DNA of 57,813 nt from NCBI GenBank assembly GCA_964372755.1, contig CAYJQX010000005.1, forward strand, positions 1 to 57,813. Direction: 5' to 3'. The notes below the pieces were generated by a model. The model was not told the DNA's origin. It saw only the letters and a program-made list of their open reading frames with translations, and did not search any database. The DNA is from an uncultured Candidatus Saccharibacteria bacterium (GTDB lineage: Bacteria > Patescibacteriota > Minisyncoccia > UBA9983). Positions 3,471 to 55,647 of this stretch are shown here, in pieces. Each line of letters opens with the position of its first letter. Positions within the stretch are counted from its first letter, which is position 1. The position numbers and the translations under genes were made by a program.

Positions 3471-4006
3471 ACTTTGCTGTATTTATTTAAGTCAAAAATA
3501 ATCTGGCCTTTATATTCACCAGGTTTTATTTTTTCCTTAAAGCCAAATTTATCAGTCAAAATAACTTCTTTTTCAACTAAAAAAGTGTACCTAACAGTCG
3601 CGTGAGTTTCCCAATCGTTATATTCGTCGCGCACTTCTTCAAAAGTTTCCCTCGCCTCTTTCCAATTTTCCACTTGTTTCGCGAGTGCTCCGTCATTTTT
3701 CATTTTGTTTAATTTCGCAAGCCACTCGTCCTGCTTGTCCAAAACAAAAAACCGGCTCGCTTTTTCGGTGTCGCCGGCCTCGAGCGCCTCCAGAAACATA
3801 TCAAAAGTCTCCTGTGGCGTTTCCCCGCCATAAATATCGGCGGAGTATATTTTGGAAATTTCCTCGTTTGCCCTGCTTATCCGCCACTGCCCCAGCCAGC
3901 GCAGAAATGTTTCCGAAGTGGTGCCGTATAAAATAACCAGCGAGACAAAAATAACAATCAGAAACCCGATGGTGAATTTCCAAAAAGTTTTATCGAAGTA
4001 TTTCAT
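3449..4006 (-). CDS. Membrane-anchored hypothetical protein (NTF2-like fold possible)
   Basis: ORF 3449-4057; start moved to ATG 4006 (MKYFDKTFW) because the longer N-terminus lies in a repeat element; one N-terminal TM segment. Confidence 0.7.
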   Translation of the reverse strand: MKYFDKTFWKFTIGFLIVIFVSLVILYGTTSETFLRWLGQWRISRANEEISKIYSADIYGGETPQETFDMFLEALEAGDTEKASRFFVLDKQDEWLAKLNKMKNDGALAKQVENWKEARETFEEVRDEYNDWETHATVRYTFLVEKEVILTDKFGFKEKIKPGEYKGQIIFDLNKYSKVWKITLL

Positions 4007-4010
4007 GGTA

Positions 4011-4117
4011 ACGACGCTAATACACGAATAATACAGGCGAATGAACACGAATAACAAAGAAGGGGGCCAAATCTGATACTACATTAGTGTTATTGGTGTT
4101 CATTTACATATTGGTGC
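4011..4117. repeat. Inverted-repeat element copy A (empty, degenerate right arm)
   Basis: acgacgctaatacacgaataatacaggcgaatgaacacgaat...attagtgttattggtgttcatttacatattggtgcgg; matches copies at 17469, 38929, 53612 and 55162. Confidence 0.85.
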
Positions 4118-4120
4118 GGG

Positions 4121-4939
4121 TTACTTAACCGACCCTTTTTCCTTTTCTAACGTTCCCGCCAGAGCCGTATTTCCTGCCGCTTTGGCGATTTCTATCGCTT
4201 TGTCGTAATAAACAAGAGCCTCTGAATTCATTTTTGTCTCGGCATAATATTGAGCCAAGCGGACATGTAAATCCAGAGATTTGGGATTTTTTTCAATACC
4301 CCGTTTCAAAATATCATCAGCTTGATCGGACTTTTGAAGATACGAGAAACGATATAGATCATGCAGGGACAAATACGCTGGTATATAGTCGGCTTTTATC
4401 TCCAACCCTTTCATCAAATTTTTCTCCGCTTGCGGATAATCTTTGAGGTAGAAACGATACAGGTCGCCGAGATTCATATAAACCACTTCGTATTGGGGTC
4501 TATTCAGAGAAACGAATTTCCAAATCTCCTCGGCTCCTTTATAATCTCCGATATTTTTCTTGTATGTCCCCAAATCCATCCAATGGCTGATGAGGGTATT
4601 GTCTTTTTTCAGGACCTCGGATATTTCTTTGATCTTATCCGTATAAAACTTCTTTTCCTCCTCCGATAAAGAAGCGGTAACAACTATCAGCTTTGCAAGA
4701 TCAGGGGCGACCCCTTTGAGCTTGTCGGAAATAATTGTAACGAAAGGGGCACCCTCTTTGTTTGTATTATCATTTTTCGGGTCGCCTGATATATCTTTAT
4801 CTTTTTGGGAGTTTAAATTCTCCGCTTTTTCCTTGTTAAAAATCTTGATATCCTGCCATGAAAAATATGAAATACCGCCAACCACCAAAACCAAAAGAAG
4901 GATCGATAATGCCAGTTTTATTTTTTCTGATTTCTCCAT
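4121..4939 (-). CDS. TPR-repeat protein with N-terminal membrane anchor
   Basis: Helical repeats (YMNLGDLY...AEKNL; YLSLHDLY; HVRLAQYY...ALVYYDKAIE); hydrophobic N-terminus. Confidence 0.85.
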   Translation of the reverse strand: MEKSEKIKLALSILLLVLVVGGISYFSWQDIKIFNKEKAENLNSQKDKDISGDPKNDNTNKEGAPFVTIISDKLKGVAPDLAKLIVVTASLSEEEKKFYTDKIKEISEVLKKDNTLISHWMDLGTYKKNIGDYKGAEEIWKFVSLNRPQYEVVYMNLGDLYRFYLKDYPQAEKNLMKGLEIKADYIPAYLSLHDLYRFSYLQKSDQADDILKRGIEKNPKSLDLHVRLAQYYAETKMNSEALVYYDKAIEIAKAAGNTALAGTLEKEKGSVK

Positions 4940-17427: not shown

Positions 17428-17468
17428 GGAATTTTTTGAGAATTGTTTTTTATTTTAATATTTTAACT

Positions 17469-17594
17469 CGACGCTAATACACGAATGACGCACGACACCA
17501 ATACACGAATGGACACGAATGACACTAATATAATACCCGACCTTAACTTTTTCTATTCGTGTTATTCGCCTGTATTATTCGCGTATTAGTGTCG
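17469..17594. repeat. Inverted-repeat element copy B (empty) between ssb and rpsR
   Basis: cgacgctaatacacgaatgacgcacgacaccaatacacgaatggacacgaat...attcgtgttattcgcctgtattattcgcgtattagtgtcg. Confidence 0.9.
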
Positions 17595-18678: not shown

Positions 18679-19509
18679 TTACCTTAGATTAAAAACTCTT
18701 TTGGCGTTTTCAAAAATTTTTTTCTCCGTCAAAGAATAGTCTTCACCTCTGATTTCAGCGATTTTTTTGATGACTTCCAAGACATAAGCCGGTTCGTTGC
18801 GTTTGCCCCGATAAGGCACGGGCGTAACATAAGGCGCGTCGGTTTCGGCCATAATCATATCTAGCGGGATTTTTTTGATCACCTCGTCGTAATTTCGGGC
18901 AAAGGTGATAACGCCGGTAAAAGACATAGTGAATCCGAGGGCTAAAAACTGCTGGGCCGTTTCCCAATCGCCGGCAAAAAAATGAACATTACCCCGCAGT
19001 TTGTCGCCAAATTTATTTTTGTATTCTTTAATCATTGAAATGGTTTCCGAATACGCCTCACGCACATGGAGCATAAGAGGTTTGTTAAGCTCCAGCGCCA
19101 ACTCTATTTGCGCTTTAAAAGTATCCACCTGCTTTGCTTCGTTACTTTTTTCACCTCGATAAAAATCCAGTCCGCATTCCCCTATCGCTACCACTTTCTC
19201 GTCCATCGCCAAGTTTTTGTAATATTCATAATCAAAATCTTCGGCGCGGGAATTAAAAGTTTGTCCGTTCTCTCCCACTTCGTCCTCATCATGGAATGAT
19301 TCAAAAGTGTGGATCGGATGCAAACCGACTATCCCCCAAAGACCGCTCTCGCGCAAATGCGCCGTCTCAACTGCTCGTTTGGATGTGCGGGCTTCGGCGC
19401 CAACGGTAATAATCCCTACACCAGTTTTAAACGCGCGATCAATAACCGCTTCTTTGTCATCCTTAAAAGCGAAAAAATTCAAGTGGGAGTGGATGTCTAT
19501 CGCTTTCAT
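18679..19509 (-). CDS. tatD: TatD family deoxyribonuclease
   Basis: DIHSHL, GLHP, AIGECGLD, LHVR, VHFFAG and ETDAPY motifs. Confidence 0.96.
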   Translation of the reverse strand: MKAIDIHSHLNFFAFKDDKEAVIDRAFKTGVGIITVGAEARTSKRAVETAHLRESGLWGIVGLHPIHTFESFHDEDEVGENGQTFNSRAEDFDYEYYKNLAMDEKVVAIGECGLDFYRGEKSNEAKQVDTFKAQIELALELNKPLMLHVREAYSETISMIKEYKNKFGDKLRGNVHFFAGDWETAQQFLALGFTMSFTGVITFARNYDEVIKKIPLDMIMAETDAPYVTPVPYRGKRNEPAYVLEVIKKIAEIRGEDYSLTEKKIFENAKRVFNLR

Positions 19510-19557
19510 AATTTATCAGTCAGTATAACATAAACAAAATCGAGGAATAAAAAAGTG

Positions 19558-19594
19558 CCCCAGACTCCACAGGTCTGACCTGTGGAGTCTGGGG
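19558..19594. repeat. Perfect 18-bp palindrome with 1-nt spacer (GTC-N-GAC centre)
   Basis: ccccagactccacaggtc-t-gacctgtggagtctgggg. Confidence 0.9.
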
Positions 19595-19626
19595 GCTTTC
19601 AGTATATCAGTTTGAATATAAAAAAA

Positions 19627-19654
19627 CCCTCGGTCTGCCGAAGCAAACCGAGGG
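19627..19654. other. GC-rich hairpin 3' of DGR-type variable region (cis hairpin and/or terminator)
   Basis: ccctcggtctgc-cgaa-gcaaaccgaggg, ~25 bp downstream of the target gene stop. Confidence 0.7.
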
Positions 19655-19678
19655 TCTGAGCGTCCAAGAGACAAAGTA

Positions 19679-20413
19679 TCAGGCTTGCGCTGGAGCCAAA
19701 GTTTCCGAGGATTCAAGCACAGAATTGAGAGAGAACACCTGATTGCCAGCATTCCACCTGCTCGGATTCCCGACGGAGAGCGCATAGACGAGCCAGCCGT
19801 CAGCGCTCCAGCTCCAGTACACGCCGACCGTCCGGAGCAAACCAGCGCTATCCCTGACATAGAAGATGTTGGCGTAGCCGTCGGTGAGAAGAGCGCCGTT
19901 TTCGCCATTCGATTGTTTCTCCATAAGGGAGAAAACTTCCGTCAGAGTGGTTTCTGCTCTCGCCTCACCGCCGAGTTCGGCGATGATAGGGCCGTCCATC
20001 GAGGACTGCCGCAACTTGTGGTAGCGGAGAGTTTGCTCGCTGATCGGGTCTTCGGTTTTGCCGTCACCTGCGAGGTACCACTCGGTGAAGTTGCCGCCAA
20101 GGTGGCTAATCTTGACCTTGGCTTTGCGGCCAGTGTCACGAATAAACTTCTCTTTGGCGACGAACTTGCTAGTGGTCGCAGGCACTACAACCGTCGAGAC
20201 GAGCTCGAGGAGGGATGGTTCATTGGTCACTTGCTCACCAATAACCTTCCCTCCATTCTTGAGGAAGGAGGTGAACTGTCGTCCGGCTTCCTTCGGGTTA
20301 CGGACGATGAAATCCTGTAAACCCGACGTCTTAAAGTCAACATCTTCCCAGTCAGTGTTCACGGCCAGGGTGGCCATAACCTGATGGGATTGGTCAAGAG
20401 TGATTTGTCCCAT
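19679..20413 (-). CDS. DGR-type variable (CLec-fold-like) target protein 1
   Basis: C-terminus NIFYV...TVGVYWSW..DGWLVYALSVGNPSRWNAGNQVFS resembles DGR variable regions; NNY codons at putative variable sites; GC-richer than flanks; downstream hairpin. Confidence 0.75.
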   Translation of the reverse strand: MGQITLDQSHQVMATLAVNTDWEDVDFKTSGLQDFIVRNPKEAGRQFTSFLKNGGKVIGEQVTNEPSLLELVSTVVVPATTSKFVAKEKFIRDTGRKAKVKISHLGGNFTEWYLAGDGKTEDPISEQTLRYHKLRQSSMDGPIIAELGGEARAETTLTEVFSLMEKQSNGENGALLTDGYANIFYVRDSAGLLRTVGVYWSWSADGWLVYALSVGNPSRWNAGNQVFSLNSVLESSETLAPAQA

Positions 20414-20548
20414 TGCAGTTTCCTTTCTTTAACAATATGCTTTCGCTCGGTAAACCTGCCGAGCCAAGTAGGGAGAAGAGCTCCCAGAAATCTGTGGTGG
20501 AGATTAGCACAGGCAGGCTGGTTTGTCAAAGTTTTTTAGCAATAACCC

Positions 20549-21220
20549 CTACCTAATCAACCTATCTGCAATAACAGGAATTTCTTTGGTAAAAAATTCT
20601 TTTACCGTATTCCAGACGGCAGAGAAAAGTATCTCTGGCTCGGGATCGCTTTCAGCGTCCTCAAAGTAGACCAAGGCTTTCAAGATATGATGGTAGTCGT
20701 GAGCAATAGACGGATACTGAACTTTAAGCCTTTTAATAGTCTCCTCTAAAGGTTCAAGATTGTTCGCGCACCAATACAGGTCAAAGAAATCGCGTTTCCT
20801 GCCTCTTTGGGATACGGCTGTGATTTTCATTACGGCGACATCAATTTTATCAATTATCCGAATTGATCCGTGCCAGAGAAATTCTTGTTTCGGAACAAAA
20901 AACGGATAAGTGATAAAACTTATTTTTGCGCCGAATAATTCTCCATAAATTGTGTTTTTTTCCATCACTTCTGTCATCCAATCAGGGTTGTTTATGAAAT
21001 TAGCCAAAAGCTCTTGCCCGTCAAAATCTTTTTCTTGAGTAAAAAAATCAAGGTCATAAGATTTGCGGTTACCGGTCTGTAAAGCGAGTGCTGTACCTCC
21101 AGCCAAATACCAAGAAGAGTCTTTTAGCCAATTTTCCGAAGACAAATAATCAAGAGCTTTTTTTGTCTCGCTCGGCAAGGTTTCGTAATGCCAATTTAGT
21201 TTTTTAGCATCAGCGTCCAT
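20549..21220 (-). CDS. AbiEii/MenT-like nucleotidyltransferase toxin (type IV TA)
   Basis: LAGGTALALQ.G.R.SYDLDFF; MKITAVSQRGRKRDFFDLY. Confidence 0.9.
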   Translation of the reverse strand: MDADAKKLNWHYETLPSETKKALDYLSSENWLKDSSWYLAGGTALALQTGNRKSYDLDFFTQEKDFDGQELLANFINNPDWMTEVMEKNTIYGELFGAKISFITYPFFVPKQEFLWHGSIRIIDKIDVAVMKITAVSQRGRKRDFFDLYWCANNLEPLEETIKRLKVQYPSIAHDYHHILKALVYFEDAESDPEPEILFSAVWNTVKEFFTKEIPVIADRLIR

Positions 21221-38918: not shown

Positions 38919-38928
38919 AAAATTTATC

Positions 38929-39395
38929 CGACGCTAATACACAAATAATACGCACGAATGACACGAATTTAAATCCTTTCGGAAAAAATAATCCTTTTTG
39001 GTTTTAAGTATCTATTTCTAAAATTAACCACCAATCCTAGTTTGTATTTGGAAGCCTTCAAGTATCTAAGCATTTGATAATAGTCTTCTTTCTCGGTAAA
39101 GGGTTTGGCTTTCAAGTCCACCAATATCTTGCCTTCAATGGAGAAATCTACCTTATTAGTAGCCTTGTTGTCAATCAAGTCAACCGATATATTTTTCTCC
39201 CTTTCAAAAACCACTTCTGAAGCAACTAAAAGTTTCTCTAATGCGTCCGCATATTGGCGCTCTCTACAAAACCGACCCAATTCGTTATGAACCTTAAAAC
39301 ATAGACCAGAAATAGTATAAGAAAGCTCGGGGTATAAAATTGTCCTTTCCTTTTTACTATTCGTGTCATTCGAATCCATTAGCGTATTGGTGTCG
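38929..39395 (-). mobile_element. GxxExxY nuclease gene bracketed by ~40-bp imperfect inverted repeats (putative mobile cassette)
   Basis: Left arm 38929-38968 cgacgctaatacacaaataatacgcacgaatgacacgaat; right arm 39359-39395 attcgtgtcattcgaatccattagcgtattggtgtcg; interrupts the normally adjacent nusG-rplK. Confidence 0.6.
38969..39379 (-). CDS. GxxExxY family PD-(D/E)XK nuclease-like protein
   Basis: ILYPELSY.I.G..FKVHNELG...E.QY..AL; VDF.IE.KILVDLKA; QML.YLKAS...LGLVVNF. Confidence 0.9.
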   Translation of the reverse strand: MDSNDTNSKKERTILYPELSYTISGLCFKVHNELGRFCRERQYADALEKLLVASEVVFEREKNISVDLIDNKATNKVDFSIEGKILVDLKAKPFTEKEDYYQMLRYLKASKYKLGLVVNFRNRYLKPKRIIFSERI

Positions 39396-39397
39396 TG

Positions 39398-39943
39398 TTA
39401 TATTTTCTTCGCCTGCAAGAAATCTATTTCCACCGGCGTTTCGCGCCCAAAGATAGAGACAAGAATCTTGATTTTGCCACGCGCTTCGTCCACTTCGTTT
39501 ATTCTGCCTTCAAAATCTTTAAAAGGACCATCGGTAATTTTCACAATATCCCCTTCTTTTACGTCCAATTTATATTTCGGTTCTTCCACTCCCATGCGTT
39601 TGAACAGGGAATCTATTTCCTCTTTGGAAAGAGGGATTGGAGTTGTTCCACTGCCCACAAACCCAGTTACCCTTGGGGTGTTTCTCACCACATACCACGA
39701 GTCGTCCGAAACTATCATATCCACCAAGACATACCCCGGATAGATTTTTTCTTCTATCACCTGCCGTTTGCCTCCTTTAATTTTTATCTTTTTTTCTGTT
39801 GGCACCACTACTTCAAAAATTTCGTCCTCTTTTCCTAAAGATTCTATGCGCTGTTTTAAATTTCTTACCACAGCATCTTCATAACCAGAGTAGGTGTGGA
39901 TAGCGTACCAATTTCTGCCGGCTTGAACTTCTTGTCTTGCCAT
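39398..39943 (-). CDS. nusG: Transcription termination/antitermination factor NusG
   Basis: WYAIHTYSGYE, YPGYVLV, VRNTPRVTGFVG, KOW GPFKDFEG, FGRETPVE. Confidence 0.99.
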   Translation of the reverse strand: MARQEVQAGRNWYAIHTYSGYEDAVVRNLKQRIESLGKEDEIFEVVVPTEKKIKIKGGKRQVIEEKIYPGYVLVDMIVSDDSWYVVRNTPRVTGFVGSGTTPIPLSKEEIDSLFKRMGVEEPKYKLDVKEGDIVKITDGPFKDFEGRINEVDEARGKIKILVSIFGRETPVEIDFLQAKKI

Positions 39944-43262: not shown

Positions 43263-44583
43263 TTCGTATTTTTTTGTGGTAGCTGATGGCAAACCTGTGC
43301 GCTTCGTCGCGAAGGCGAATTAAGGTGATGGGCAAAACATTTTTAGGAATCGCGCCAATGAAGTCATTTCGCTTGCGCTCTGGCCCCTTAGCAATACCCA
43401 CCACAGGAATTTCATAACCATATTCGGCAAGCACTTCTTTCACGGCATTGACCTGTCCTTTCCCCCCGTCAATCAAAAAACAAACAGGCAGAGGCCACTG
43501 GTCATGATTCAACCGCCTGCGTAAAACTTCTTTAAGCATTCCCGTGTCCCCGCCAGTGGCTCGGGCAGGATTAGCGCCCTCTATCGTTTTTATTTTAAAC
43601 TTGCGGTAGTCACTTTTCTTCGGCTCGCCATCTTCAAAAACAACCATCACGCCCACAGCCGAAGTTCCCGAAATATTCGAGATATCATAGCCTTCAATCC
43701 TGGTATTTCGATTTTTTGGCTTAGTATTATTCGTGTCATTCGTATCCATTCGCGCTTGCCCGCCCATAGCTTCCCAGCGAAGGAGGGTATTGGTGTCGTC
43801 ATGAATTAACGCCACATCATTGATATGATTGATGGCGAAAACTTGGCGTTTTATTTTTTCGGCTTTCTCAAATTCAAGATTTCTGCTTGCCTTTTTCATC
43901 TCGGCTTCAAGATTTCGCAAAATCTTTTTCTTCTCGCCTTTGAAAAAAAGTTTTATGTTTGAAATATTTTTCGCGTAATCGGCTTTGGAAATTAAACCCG
44001 CGCAAGTGCCCGGGCAAAGCCCTATCTGATAATCAAAACAAGGTTTACCCCGCGGAGCTTCAGCAGAGTGGGGGCGACTTTCTGGATGAACGCTATAAGG
44101 AAAAATCCTACGGATAATCTTTAGCGCTTCGCGCAAACTGGATGAAGAAGTGAACGGGCCGAAATTCGTCCCTTTTGCCAAAATCCCTTTCTCTCTAATA
44201 ATCAAAACTCTCGGGAATTTGTCTTTGGTAATTTGAACATAAAGAAAGCTCTTGCCATCCTTCTCGCGGATATTAAATGGCGGTTGATACTTTTTAATCA
44301 ACTCCGCCTCGAGTATCAAAGCTTCTACAGCATTGGCTGTTTCGCGGTAATCAATTTTTGCAATTTGCCCCACCATCGCCTCAATCCGCGCGTCGTGAGG
44401 ATGAGTAAAATAACTCTCTACTCTTCTTTTGAGACTTGTGGCTTTGCCCACATAAAGGATTTTGGCATCCTTGTCACACATCAAATACACCCCGGGCGAT
44501 TCCGGCAAAACTCCATTTTTGATTTTTACTTGCCCCTTAAAGCTCTTTGAGCGAAGTAGGGATTGTTTTGGAACCTGCGACAT
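43243..44583 (-). CDS. uvrC: Excinuclease ABC subunit C (short, no HhH tail)
   Basis: PGVYLM...YVGKATSLKRRVESYF GIY-YIG; UVR coiled coil LEFEKAEKIK; RIEGYDISN; LIDGGKGQ; RDEAHRFA. Confidence 0.95.
   Translation of the reverse strand: MSQVPKQSLLRSKSFKGQVKIKNGVLPESPGVYLMCDKDAKILYVGKATSLKRRVESYFTHPHDARIEAMVGQIAKIDYRETANAVEALILEAELIKKYQPPFNIREKDGKSFLYVQITKDKFPRVLIIREKGILAKGTNFGPFTSSSSLREALKIIRRIFPYSVHPESRPHSAEAPRGKPCFDYQIGLCPGTCAGLISKADYAKNISNIKLFFKGEKKKILRNLEAEMKKASRNLEFEKAEKIKRQVFAINHINDVALIHDDTNTLLRWEAMGGQARMDTNDTNNTKPKNRNTRIEGYDISNISGTSAVGVMVVFEDGEPKKSDYRKFKIKTIEGANPARATGGDTGMLKEVLRRRLNHDQWPLPVCFLIDGGKGQVNAVKEVLAEYGYEIPVVGIAKGPERKRNDFIGAIPKNVLPITLIRLRDEAHRFAISYHKKIRNVQSFK
43730..43798. repeat. 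Single arm of inverted-repeat element (copy D) with nested 33-bp insert, in frame in uvrC
   Basis: 43735-43798 identical to 53679-53742 over 64 bp. Confidence 0.92.
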
Positions 44584-44714: not shown

Positions 44715-45521
44715 TCAGAACTTCCGAGACGCCGAAACGCCCAAAACGGAGAACCGGAAGTCGTCCCAATAGCAGCTGACGCGGAGGCCGTCGGAATCGA
44801 AAGGGCCGACGAACACGCGAGCACCGCCCGAGCCGAAACTGCTGGTGCGAACGTAGATGTCCTCCAGCAGATAGTCGTCGTTGACGGCCTTATAAGTCGT
44901 GAGACCCCAGGTCGCTTCGGTGGCGTTCGGCACGGAGAGCGGCGTCTTGACCAACGCTTCCTGCTCCGACCAGTTCTTGGACAGCGAATCGTCGACCGGC
45001 TCCTTGCGAAGCGCAATCCAGACCGGCTTGGCCTTGTCGTTGCGGACGAACTTCTCGTTGGCCTTGTCGTACCAACCAGAATCGTCCTTGTCCGGCCCCT
45101 TCGAGTAGAAGTAGTCGGCGTGGATGGCGCGGATGTCGAGCATGGACATCGCCGTAGGCGGTCCCGCCACCAGCATCATGCCGGCATCACGGATCGCTTC
45201 GAGTGTTGCCTGGTCGGGCAGACGCTTACCGAGATCGATGAGCTGATCCTCGGTGTAGGTAAGACCGCGAGCCGTGGCGATCTGATCGGCAGAGATGAAA
45301 TCCTTGCCGAGAATCGTGCGAGCCAGCGTGTAATCCGGCAGCTTGGAAGTGAACCGGTTGATGCCGGCCACGACGTAGGCCTGGAACTCGCCGCCACGCT
45401 CGATAAGCCGCTGAAGACCATCCTTGTCGGGGTTAATCTCCTTGAGGGCGCGATTGCTCGCGTCCTCCACAAAACGTCCGAACTGCTTGGTCTGGTCGGA
45501 CGTGATCGATTGCATCGTCAT
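44715..45521 (-). CDS. DGR-type variable (CLec-fold-like) target protein 2
   Basis: C-terminus YVRTSS...RVFVGPFDSDGLRVSCYWDDFRFSVLGVSASRKF resembles CLec variable regions; NNY codons at variable sites; GC-rich. Confidence 0.78.
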   Translation of the reverse strand: MTMQSITSDQTKQFGRFVEDASNRALKEINPDKDGLQRLIERGGEFQAYVVAGINRFTSKLPDYTLARTILGKDFISADQIATARGLTYTEDQLIDLGKRLPDQATLEAIRDAGMMLVAGPPTAMSMLDIRAIHADYFYSKGPDKDDSGWYDKANEKFVRNDKAKPVWIALRKEPVDDSLSKNWSEQEALVKTPLSVPNATEATWGLTTYKAVNDDYLLEDIYVRTSSFGSGGARVFVGPFDSDGLRVSCYWDDFRFSVLGVSASRKF

Positions 45522-53611: not shown

Positions 53612-53742
53612 CAACGCTAATAATACGCGTGAATGAAGCAAACAGAAGAAACTGGGGCAGACGCATTGCATTATTAGCGTCATTCGTATCCATTCGCGCT
53701 TGCCCGCCCATAGCTTCCCAGCGAAGGAGGGTATTGGTGTCG
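53612..53742. repeat. Inverted-repeat element copy E (degenerate left arm; right arm with nested 33-bp insert)
   Basis: caacgctaataatacgcgtgaatg...attagcgtcattcgtatccattcgcg[cttgcccgcccatagcttcccagcgaaggaggg]tattggtgtcg. Confidence 0.88.
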
Positions 53743-53743
53743 G

Positions 53744-54355
53744 TTAATTATATTTCTTCAGTGTCTGAAAATCCTTAAGTAACTCCGGTTTTTCGTGAAT
53801 ATTGTAAATAGCCACAGCCGGATGATAGAGAGGTAAAATGTCTAATTCTCCATAGGAGGTTTTGGCTTTAAAAACTCTGCCATGCATTTGGCTTATCGGA
53901 CCGCATTGCAGTCCTAAACCGAATTTTTCCATTATATAGACCATGGAAAATCTGCCCAAGGTAGCGATTACCCGAGGCTGAATTGTTTCTATTTGTCTGT
54001 CTAAAAATGGGCTATATAAATTTATTTCGGCCGGAGTCGGGTCGCGATTTTCTGGCGGACGATCTTTGACAATATTGGTAACATAAACATCTTCTCTTTT
54101 TATGCCAACAGAGAAAAGCAGTTCGTCCAAAACCCTCCCCGACGCGCCACAAAAGGGCCGTCCTGTTTGGGCTTCATTTTTCCCCGGCGCTTCGCCGACA
54201 AACATTATTTTAGCGGAGTGGCTCCCCTCCCCGATAACAGGAAAGGATTTATTCTGAATTCTATATTCGTAAAGAGGCGAAACTTTGAGATTTAAAACTT
54301 CTTCTTTAATTTTTTTGAGTTGTCCTGTTTTTTTATTCGTGTCATTCGTGAACAT
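53744..54355 (-). CDS. Uracil-DNA glycosylase family 4
   Basis: MFVGEAPG..E...GRPFCGASG, VYVTNIVKDRPPENRDP, LYHPA. Confidence 0.94.
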   Translation of the reverse strand: MFTNDTNKKTGQLKKIKEEVLNLKVSPLYEYRIQNKSFPVIGEGSHSAKIMFVGEAPGKNEAQTGRPFCGASGRVLDELLFSVGIKREDVYVTNIVKDRPPENRDPTPAEINLYSPFLDRQIETIQPRVIATLGRFSMVYIMEKFGLGLQCGPISQMHGRVFKAKTSYGELDILPLYHPAVAIYNIHEKPELLKDFQTLKKYN

Positions 54356-54371
54356 TCGCGTATTGGTGTCG
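54335..54371. repeat. Single arm of inverted-repeat element (copy F) containing the UDG start codon
   Basis: attcgtgtcattcgtgaacattcgcgtattggtgtcg; ATG at 54355. Confidence 0.9.
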
Positions 54372-54373
54372 GG

Positions 54374-55150
54374 TTATCTGATTTCGTAGGTAATAGTGAC
54401 CGAAGCTTTCACTTCTTCCGAGCCCGGCTCTATTTGAGGAGCAGAGCTTTTTTGAATGGAAGCTCCGGCAAAATCACCCCCATAAACTTCATAAAAAGGG
54501 GAGTTCGGTGAGTTGTCATAGATACTGGTTATTCTCCCTATTTTGAATCCGCCTGCCTCCGCTATAACCAAAGCTTTTTCTTTGGCCTTTTTTATCGCTT
54601 CCGCCCTAGCTTCTGCCTCGGCTTTCTCTGGATTGTCTATAACAAAGAAAAGTTGGGAAACAGAATTAGCTCCGTTTTTCACCACTCCGCTTACCACATC
54701 CCCTGTTTTTGTGAGATCACGAATTTTGATTTCCAAAGTCTGACTGACAGTATAACCGGATATTTCCGGCGCCGGACAGATTCTGTCCGTGCAGTTGTAA
54801 TAAGGATATTTCGGAACAACATTGTAATTTAGGGTTTTGATATCTTTAGGATCCACGCCTTTGGCTTTCACAAAATCTATAACCTTATTTGCGTTTTCAG
54901 TATTCTTTGTTTGAATGGCGTTTAAATCTTTGCCACCTTCAGTGATAACACTGGCTGTAAATTTTGCCACGTCGGGCACTGTAATAACCTTGCCTTCGGA
55001 TGTAACAGAAAACGTCCTGTTGTAATAGGAATCGAGAGAATCATAACTTGTCCAAGCAAAAAACACCCCATATGAAATAGCCGCTAGAGCAATCGACGAT
55101 GAGCCGATAATGATAGAGATTCCTAAGTATTTTTTTATTTTTGGTTCCAT
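54374..55150 (-). CDS. SIMPL (DUF541) domain protein
   Basis: VTSEGKV...PDVA, GANSVSQLFF, ARAEAIKKAKEKA...A; start set at MEPKIKK. Confidence 0.9.
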   Translation of the reverse strand: MEPKIKKYLGISIIIGSSSIALAAISYGVFFAWTSYDSLDSYYNRTFSVTSEGKVITVPDVAKFTASVITEGGKDLNAIQTKNTENANKVIDFVKAKGVDPKDIKTLNYNVVPKYPYYNCTDRICPAPEISGYTVSQTLEIKIRDLTKTGDVVSGVVKNGANSVSQLFFVIDNPEKAEAEARAEAIKKAKEKALVIAEAGGFKIGRITSIYDNSPNSPFYEVYGGDFAGASIQKSSAPQIEPGSEEVKASVTITYEIR

Positions 55151-55161
55151 AATTTTTATAA

Positions 55162-55270
55162 CGACGCTAATACACGAATAATACACGAATGTCGCGAATA
55201 ATAAAGAGGGAAGACAAGATTTGGTATTATACTATTAGTGTCATTCGTGAACATTCGTGTATTGGTGTCG
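55162..55270. repeat. Inverted-repeat element copy G (empty)
   Basis: cgacgctaatacacgaataatacacgaatgtcgcgaat...attagtgtcattcgtgaacattcgtgtattggtgtcg. Confidence 0.92.
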
Positions 55271-55272
55271 GG

Positions 55273-55647
55273 TTATAAATATTCCCTCACTTTTTTCACT
55301 ATTTCGTCCAAGCTATTGTGCGCTTTCACCAAAAAAGCATCTGCACCGAGGGCTTTTGCCGAAGCCATGTCTTCCTGTGAACCAAGGTTAGTAAAAAGAA
55401 TGACCGGTATTTTCTTGGTTGCGTCGCCTACTTTCAAAAGCTTCAAAATTTCGAAGCCGTCAAGGCCGGGTAAAATGATATCCAGTAAGATGACGCTTGG
55501 GATCTTGTCTTTGGCAATTTTTATGGCTTCTTCTCCCTCCGAAGCGATAAAAACTTCTAAGTTTTCTTTTTTGAAAGCTTTTTCCGTTAAATCTCTCAAA
55601 AACTTATCGTCTTCTATAATAAGGACGCTTTTTTTGTTTTCTTCCAT
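55273..55647 (-). CDS. Single-domain response regulator (receiver)
   Basis: VLIIEDD, LLDIILPGLDG, ILFTN, FLVKA. Confidence 0.95.
   Translation of the reverse strand: MEENKKSVLIIEDDKFLRDLTEKAFKKENLEVFIASEGEEAIKIAKDKIPSVILLDIILPGLDGFEILKLLKVGDATKKIPVILFTNLGSQEDMASAKALGADAFLVKAHNSLDEIVKKVREYL

Follow-up and report, generated by a model that had tools for sequence, protein, structure and literature searches.

Can a gene be recognised as the target of a diversity-generating retroelement (DGR) when none of the machinery of such an element lies beside it, and if so, is it still being diversified? The question is raised by a gene on the minus strand, at 19679-20413, of a 57.8-kb stretch of DNA, here called the window, which is the entire contig C5 of a Patescibacteria genome of 745,750 bp (G000; 21 contigs, 96.6% complete). 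A previous reading of the sequence alone had described it as a DGR-type target gene and had proposed that it is either diversified in trans or an orphan. From the analysis reported here we consider it likely that the gene is an orphan DGR target, stand-alone, without a template and frozen.

The open reading frame (ORF) is intact over 244 codons and lies inside an island of 52% GC; contig and genome are at about 41-42% GC. The encoded 244-aa protein, for which no match was found in Pfam, NCBIfam or PDB sequences, belongs to a very large, uncharacterised family of Patescibacteria: 784 homologues, typically of about 237 aa and 55-75% identical, were retrieved by homology search at 90% clustering, and when 1.84 billion representatives of 50% clusters were searched with a profile, 4,055 clusters matched, 921 of them below 1e-30. 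Longer or multi-copy homologues were also run against Pfam for functional clues, with no result. One of the family's proteins, P0241 (926 aa), consists of five tandem copies of the 160-residue domain of the family and has no Pfam domain. The window protein is probably cytoplasmic, no signal peptide or membrane segment being evident by eye. The family alignment falls into three parts, namely an N-terminal module of about 55 residues, a conserved core, and a variable C-terminal segment with its tail, and the core residues that are invariant across the family are all retained in the window copy. Core, variable segment and tail are placed as follows, entropies being calculated here and below on 120 homologues:

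19853-20218, minus strand: conserved core domain, approximately residues 66-187 (to about 190), mean column entropy 0.6 bits.
19724-19852, minus strand: variable repeat (VR), approximately residues 188-230, homologous to the template repeats (TRs) of the family and delimited by the entropy pattern and by 24 TRs of relatives.
Between 19742 and 19825, minus strand: ten hypervariable codons, within the VR.
19679-19723, minus strand: conserved C-terminal tail SVLESSETLAPAQA and TGA stop, of low entropy and outside the TR homology.

The role of the family is clearest in relatives that keep complete cassettes. In three genomes of the same taxonomic family (G010, G006 and G007; loci L018, L019 and L027) a repeat of the gene's own 3' end, 110-130 nt long, lies downstream of it, and a reverse transcriptase (RT) gene comes next. 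A cassette scan, using one genome per species, covered 78 loci, and a TR was found about 320 nt past the stop codon in 24 of them, with an RT 400-500 nt beyond the TR in 20 of these 24. The order in relatives is target with VR, TR, Avd gene and DGR-type RT. When the 24 TR-VR pairs were summed, 440 mismatches fell at TR adenines versus 21 elsewhere (about 95% adenine). Given the flanking TR and RT and the adenine-specific mismatches, the family can be considered a DGR target family, and the earlier description of the window gene as DGR-type agrees with this, since members of its family are the cognate targets of DGR cassettes in many related genomes. In one metagenome-assembled genome from NCBI (L003:10001-12054) the family gene runs directly into TR-like, Asn-rich sequence and then into an RT, with no separate VR; here VR and TR were probably collapsed by the assembler.

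Concerning the VR itself, ten residues (197, 199, 203, 208, 210, 212, 216, 218, 221 and 224) have entropies of 3.0-3.45 bits, and the scaffold around them (V196, V198, W202, G206, W207, V209, A211, S213, P217, W220, G223 and V226-N230) does not exceed 0.42 bits. Six further positions show D/G/V, E/G/V, R/G and Q/R mixtures, as expected from codons with a single adenine. The C-terminal consensus is V-x-V-x-W-xxx-G-W-x-V-x-A-x-S-V-E-x-P-x-R-W-x-D-G-x-Q-V-F-S-R-N, followed by the conserved tail, and all hypervariable positions correspond to Asn codons AAC/AAT (AAY) in the TRs of relatives. The sequence-only reading had reported NNY variable codons in an invariant scaffold, and by the entropies and the AAY codons this pattern is real and far beyond chance; the aat codons that it assigned to the scaffold (N216, N221 and N224), on the other hand, are in fact variable positions that are unmutated in the window copy. 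Compared with the closest foreign TRs (L028, L031 and L052 types), the window VR shows 13 differences at TR adenines and just 3 at other positions, which are synonymous AAC/AAT changes (C>T) that also vary among TRs. Differences placed almost exclusively at TR adenines identify the window VR, as far as sequence comparison can, as one that was earlier diversified by a DGR. The W...W loop of the window copy has 8 codons (WSWSADGW), two more than usual; the same length variant is carried by the TRs of L058, L095 and L105, and the 2-codon repeat tggagc tggagc was therefore rejected as a sign of decay. One scaffold change, R229L (CGC>CTC), is unique to the window copy among the homologues compared.

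Where, then, is the template? No RT, Avd or TR is present in the window, as had been stated before, and in the genome RVT_1 matches are confined to contigs C9 and C10, and bAvd to C9. The BLASTN search for a TR in the genome that had been proposed as a check was carried out with a word size of 7, together with TBLASTN and a six-frame protein search; across the 745-kb genome only the self match was returned, and neither BLASTN nor TBLASTN found a second copy of the VR. In the three source runs no contig at least 80% similar to the window VR was found besides the VR itself, and a degenerate pattern for the window VR/TR lineage, scanned in JGI metagenome contigs, gave 0 matches.

The genome has a single complete DGR, which spans two contigs (C6:49439-49963 joined to C9:1-2156; loci L024 and L023). 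Its target starts at C6:49439, runs off the contig end and resumes in C9 through a 110-nt overlap with 98% identity; this protein has no Pfam match. The VR (C9:129-257) and the TR (C9:601-729) have 19 of their 20 mismatches at TR adenines, bAvd lies on the opposite strand (C9:808-1086, minus), and the RT is an RVT_1 ORF of 407 codons (C9:936-2156) with GNLTSQ and YADD motifs. A second RT, at C10:5901-7073 (RVT_1, 46 bits), has QGAPTSP and YVDD motifs and is without the GNLTSQ-type motif of the C9 RT. The C9 TR encodes ...NANRDNDGRWLNAYNDRPDNRWNCDNGFAFAV, and it gave no BLASTN match to the window VR; the gapped local alignment of the two scored 57, compared with 38.9 +/- 5.3 and a maximum of 57.5 in shuffles, and the C9 TR was therefore rejected as template because the similarity is not significant. 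A DGR-type RT and bAvd are present in the genome, yet they are tied to another TR and another target. The working definition of a non-adjacent target in Wu et al. 2018 (PMC5758913) requires that the VR depart from a TR of the genome by A-to-N differences alone; by this definition the window gene is not a remote target, since the only TR of the genome is unrelated to it in sequence. Of the two possibilities raised before, diversification in trans is thus not supported, the single DGR of the genome having an unrelated TR, and the orphan alternative fits best, there being no VR template in the genome and the resident DGR serving its own adjacent target.

The same state is found elsewhere in the family. 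G035, a closed genome of the same class in one contig, has one family member at 167 kb, whose VR matches only itself genome-wide; the one DGR of G035, at about 47 kb, serves a target from the family to which the C6/C9 target belongs. Since this arrangement is also found in a closed genome, an assembly artefact is probably not the cause of the template-less state. Among the Patescibacteria loci that could be assessed, 51 in number, TR-linked and TR-less ones are almost equally frequent (about 25 and about 26), and among 23 examined genomes with TR-less copies about 19 are without any TR-like fragment and 10 without a DGR-type RT. Short RT fragments adjoin TR-less family genes in two genomes (G068:C45:4595-4780 and G075:C4:22999-23190), one of them with an in-frame TGA, and these look like decaying former DGR cassettes. 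Scaffold changes at non-adenine positions, mostly W>C, are found mainly in TR-less close relatives. No VR was common to Patescibacteria copies from different genomes, at most 6 of the 10 variable positions being alike. Homologues at 35-42% identity are also present in Verrucomicrobiota (L078, L080, L083, L085-L087 and L090-L094); these are without TR or RT and keep the ten "variable" positions as RGAVDIDLNH even at 50-80% core identity. The ten positions therefore appear to form a functional surface that Verrucomicrobiota keep fixed and Patescibacteria randomise.

The window gene and the resident DGR target are nevertheless connected at their 5' ends, where three features of the window gene come into play:

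20501-20529, minus strand: promoter-like element, with a -35 TTGACA (20524-20529), a 17-nt spacer and a -10-like TAATCT (20501-20506), read from the sequence.
20414-20500, minus strand: 5' leader; it contains a short hairpin near 20445-20464 and the purine-rich stretch AAAGAAAGGAAAC for ribosome binding and, one indel aside, shares about 85% identity with the C6 paralogue's leader.
20243-20413, minus strand: N-terminal module, codons 1-57, with three short helices predicted in a low-confidence AlphaFold2 (AF2) model.

The N-terminal module is 86% identical in amino acids and 84% in nucleotides to the N-terminus of the resident DGR target (C6:49439-49609), after which the similarity abruptly ends; in total about 300 nt, comprising promoter-like element, leader and first 57 codons (window 20243-20529, C6:49300-49609), are common to both genes at about 85% identity. 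The three-helix prediction comes from an AF2 run on 35 close homologues, with pLDDT 49. The promoter-like element, conserved with the 5' region of the C6 cognate target, was left uncalled by a consensus scan because its -10 matches at no more than 3 of 6 positions; in G004 the equivalent position of homologous genes is occupied by TTGACA-N17-TATAAT, and we infer a promoter function for 20501-20529. No Rfam family matched the locus at gathering score. In the family alignment at least five unrelated-looking N-terminal types can be distinguished, the module being interchangeable among members, and other types span both target families as well (P0030 and the cognate target of G035, for example, have matching N-termini). 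The RTs serving the window family and those serving the C6/C9 target family are closely related, with up to 65% amino acid identity, and in G004 two genes with the shared 5' module were found, both at contig ends. The shared module suggests that different variable heads may have one regulation and one partner in common. Its presence on two genes of one genome exemplifies the intragenic recombination that Roux et al. 2021 (PMC8144416) put forward. In both cases the gene directly preceding the DGR-target gene encodes an AbiEii nucleotidyltransferase toxin (window 20549-21220, minus strand; C6:48509-49192, plus strand), the two proteins being 29% identical.

At the 3' end the homology with complete cassettes can be followed to its limit through the following features:

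19614-19678, minus strand: conserved 3' untranslated region (3'UTR), with a small hairpin GTCTCTTGGAC and then an intrinsic terminator, from fold and cassette comparison.
19600-19613, minus strand: last cassette-homologous stretch AAACTGATATACTG, matching AAATTGATATACTG of L028 at 13 of 14 positions.
19546-19595, minus strand: second intrinsic terminator, with a 17-pair stem (19558-19594) and a T-run, dG -37.1 kcal/mol, z = -6.6.

The sequence-only reading had noticed a 12-bp hairpin with a GAA-type loop behind the gene. The hairpin exists, but its dimensions are different: the stem has 15 pairs (19624-19657) and the loop reads UUCG in the sense orientation and CGAA on the plus strand, with dG -26.9 kcal/mol and z = -7.6. 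Because a T-run follows, it is to be read first as an intrinsic terminator, that of the cassette. The 3'UTR and terminator are kept nearly base for base, with compensatory changes in the stem, at both TR-linked and TR-less loci of other genomes. The CTTG-rich tract described at the same place did not hold as an element, its enrichment being weak (2 CTTG in 146 nt, about 0.7 expected), and it consists mostly of the coding tail SVLESSE...PAQA and the conserved 3'UTR. A motif GTC(C/T)CTTGGA (GTCCCTTGGA) occurs in the 3'UTRs of family members (window 19660-19678) and of the unrelated C9 target (C9:290-330); its presence in both may be chance. Similarity to complete cassettes stops about 25 nt beyond the terminator. 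The stretch AAACTGATATACTG could be what is left of TTGATATACT, the promoter-like sequence ahead of the TR transcript in complete cassettes, for which such a short, AT-rich match is suggestive only. The second terminator, directly upstream of tatD (18679-19509), is probably host backbone or insertion junction, since family cassettes have no counterpart of it. With this terminator and tatD following the cassette end, no room is left for a TR or RT remnant.

How do other explanations compare with an orphan? The window gene could be an active remote target, its VR being rewritten in trans from a matching TR, accompanied by an RT of its own or not, that is present in the cell and outside the bin, as an unassembled repeat or on a plasmid or phage. 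Remote targets are documented more than 100 kb from the RT (PMC5758913), and within the family a second copy in G006 (L021), with no adjacent TR, has 27 A-site versus 9 non-A differences from the TR of that genome; moreover, scaffold, 3' hairpin and the end resembling an initiation of mutagenic homing (IMH) site are almost intact in the window copy. Several points belong to the same side and weigh against our interpretation. The assembly is fragmented and DGR loci do break assemblies, as seen in the C6/C9 contig break on which the genome's own DGR lies, and for a bin of 21 contigs at 96.6% completeness there is a small chance that a TR-avd-RT piece was unbinned or unassembled. The window VR is identical in contigs of runs X1-X3, all from one study, and in a fragment found in a second study (X4), but this comparison used assembled contigs (Logan) of the runs, where rare VR variants would be invisible, and it has no power as a test of stability, the VR of the resident DGR being equally invariant in two runs (X1 and X2). 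Furthermore, an excess of scaffold decay in TR-less over TR-linked copies was not significant overall (mean 2.0 vs 1.5, p = 0.5). Against an active remote target stand the failure to find a TR-like sequence or a second DGR RT in 745 kb of a nearly complete genome, the source runs with no similar contig besides the VR itself, the pattern scan of JGI metagenome contigs, the equally TR-less copy of closed G035, and the absence of any TR-like fragment from about 19 of the 23 genomes with TR-less copies, so that we consider it unlikely.

Another way of diversifying the window gene would be through the resident C6/C9 DGR, which could recognise it as a second target through the shared promoter, leader and N-terminal module. 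The long common 5' sequence, the GTCCCTTGGA motif in both 3'UTRs and the close relationship of the RTs of the two target families would fit this possibility. However, retrohoming needs a homologous VR, and the C9 TR has no significant similarity to that of the window; in addition, the shared part lies at the 5' end, 550 nt from the VR, and in the BPP-1 model sequences upstream of the VR are dispensable for homing (PMC3240598). We therefore regard this explanation as very improbable. A decaying pseudogene, left over from an earlier DGR cassette and now functionless, would be in line with the loss of TR and RT, the unique substitution R229L, the RT fragments that reveal cassette decay beside other TR-less copies, and the fact that frozen VRs are not seen persisting across species. 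On the other hand, the 244-codon frame is intact with its family-invariant core residues, the gene still has its promoter-like element, leader, ribosome-binding stretch and terminator, and TR-less copies generally keep the scaffold as well as TR-linked ones do; a pseudogene thus appears improbable, if less so than service by the resident DGR.

The course of events behind an orphan target may be envisaged as follows. The window VR would have been written by mutagenic retrohoming in an ancestor or donor, and afterwards the TR-avd-RT part would have been deleted, or the gene would have moved without it. The VR would now be fixed, and the cell would make a protein with one frozen, putative binding surface, formed in the predicted model by the beta-hairpin, the loop and the last strand of an alpha/beta domain. 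Expression would proceed from the promoter, leader and N-terminal module held in common with the resident DGR target; a search for RNA runs returned none.

A second GC-rich gene of the window, at 44715-45521 on the minus strand, encodes 268 aa and is a member of a different large family, in which the C-terminus is hypervariable within a fixed scaffold (YVRTSSxDSxGxRVxVGxFDAxGLxVxxxWDxxRxxxLGVSAxRKF). No TR for it was found in the genome, and by its sequence pattern it is probably a second orphan DGR target. A kinship between its protein and that of 19679-20413 was rejected, BLASTP finding none (E = 0.13), and the two represent separate families. Three unrelated VR scaffolds would be present in the genome, in these two genes and in the C6/C9 target, and two of the three share promoter, leader and N-terminal module. 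Dispersed direct and inverted repeats of 30-80 nt (for example CGACACCAATACACGAATG...) were also noted between genes of the window, at 4004-4125, 17461-17594, 38921-39401, 43719-43798 and 53663-55284.

More generally, it is possible, and we propose it only tentatively, that genes of the family diversify, are selected and then freeze, template-less copies being a regular end state and not debris. Cassettes of one RT lineage would move through Patescibacteria, randomise a binding surface and lose TR, avd and RT, and the chosen variant would stay expressed, with one cellular docking partner and a common regulation serving interchangeable variable heads. The scaffold of the family would then be a DGR-variable fold other than the C-type lectin (C-Lec), and Verrucomicrobiota would have an undiversified form of it, similar to the ancestor, in which the "variable" positions make up a conserved functional site.

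These results do not change the basic picture of DGR biology. Their main interest lies in the frequency of template-less copies, in the shared 5' module and in a fold with no solved match. Since DGR surveys (PMC5758913, PMC8144416) find targets through the TR, template-less copies go uncounted, and they make up about half of the family loci in species genomes, one of them in a closed genome. This suggests a life cycle of DGR cassettes, with gain, diversification and loss of the machinery, that leaves expressed proteins of fixed specificity; if such a cycle is true, counts of "DGR-diversified" proteins in ultra-small bacteria are underestimates. If the domain is not a C-type lectin, the view that only this fold tolerates DGR hypervariation would be weakened, and a second natural scaffold for protein engineering would become available.

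Concerning the fold, residues 60-244 were modelled with AF2 on a diverse alignment of 62 sequences (pLDDT 91.9, pTM 0.87). The model is an alpha/beta domain of roughly 170 residues whose last four strands form a meander, and the VR occupies the strands 134-142 and 147-154 (a beta-hairpin; model residues), the next loop and the last strand, 166-170. Foldseek gave no match to PDB and BFVD at E <= 0.001, with best TM-scores of about 0.2-0.27. The C-Lec fold is held to be near-universal for VRs, and domains of unknown kind in the candidate phyla radiation (CPR) are expected to be new C-Lec variants (PMC8144416); the modelling and the Foldseek search neither confirm nor refute this expectation, and the domain could be either a C-Lec variant that has diverged far or another scaffold. 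Compared with C-Lec variable proteins such as Mtd of BPP-1, TvpA, TaqVP and archaeal AvpA (PMC2408619, PMC6328139, PMC5006420), the window protein is similar in having a C-terminal VR with variable residues alternating with a Trp/Gly-rich scaffold and, presumably, a ligand-binding surface; it differs in that its model has no Foldseek match and its sequence profile no match to PDB.

According to Guo et al. 2011 (PMC3240598), the target site of BPP-1 combines an IMH with a GC-rich stem of 7-10 bp that carries a GRNA loop of 4 nt and is situated 4-34 bp downstream of the VR. All family members likewise have a conserved GC-rich hairpin with a 4-nt loop past the VR, but its stem is of 13-16 bp (15 pairs in the window), its loop is UUCG and not GRNA, and it lies about 65-70 nt past the TR homology with a T-run behind it; owing to loop, distance and T-run, a cruciform of the BPP-1 type was not convincing. 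The seven targets of the Treponema denticola DGR (PMC5758913) are comparable in that a gene with a VR lies far from the RT in a DGR-bearing genome; those targets match the TR of their genome with A-to-N differences only, whereas the TR in the genome of the window is unrelated. Among the closest known systems are the DGRs of Patescibacteria/CPR (the "CPR set" of PMC5758913 and "DGR clade 2" of PMC8144416). The window copy differs from them in having neither its own TR, Avd and RT nor a matching TR in the genome, and by the survey definition it is not a working target. In other respects it belongs with them: the host group is the same, the relatives share the cassette of target with VR, TR, bAvd (here on the opposite strand) and RT with GNLTSQ and YADD, and the adenine-specific differences between TR and VR are the same. 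As in CPR targets, the VR is at the C-terminus of a small protein with no Pfam domain and no evident signal peptide or membrane segment, and the modular N-terminus recalls the intragenic recombination proposed for these elements in PMC8144416.

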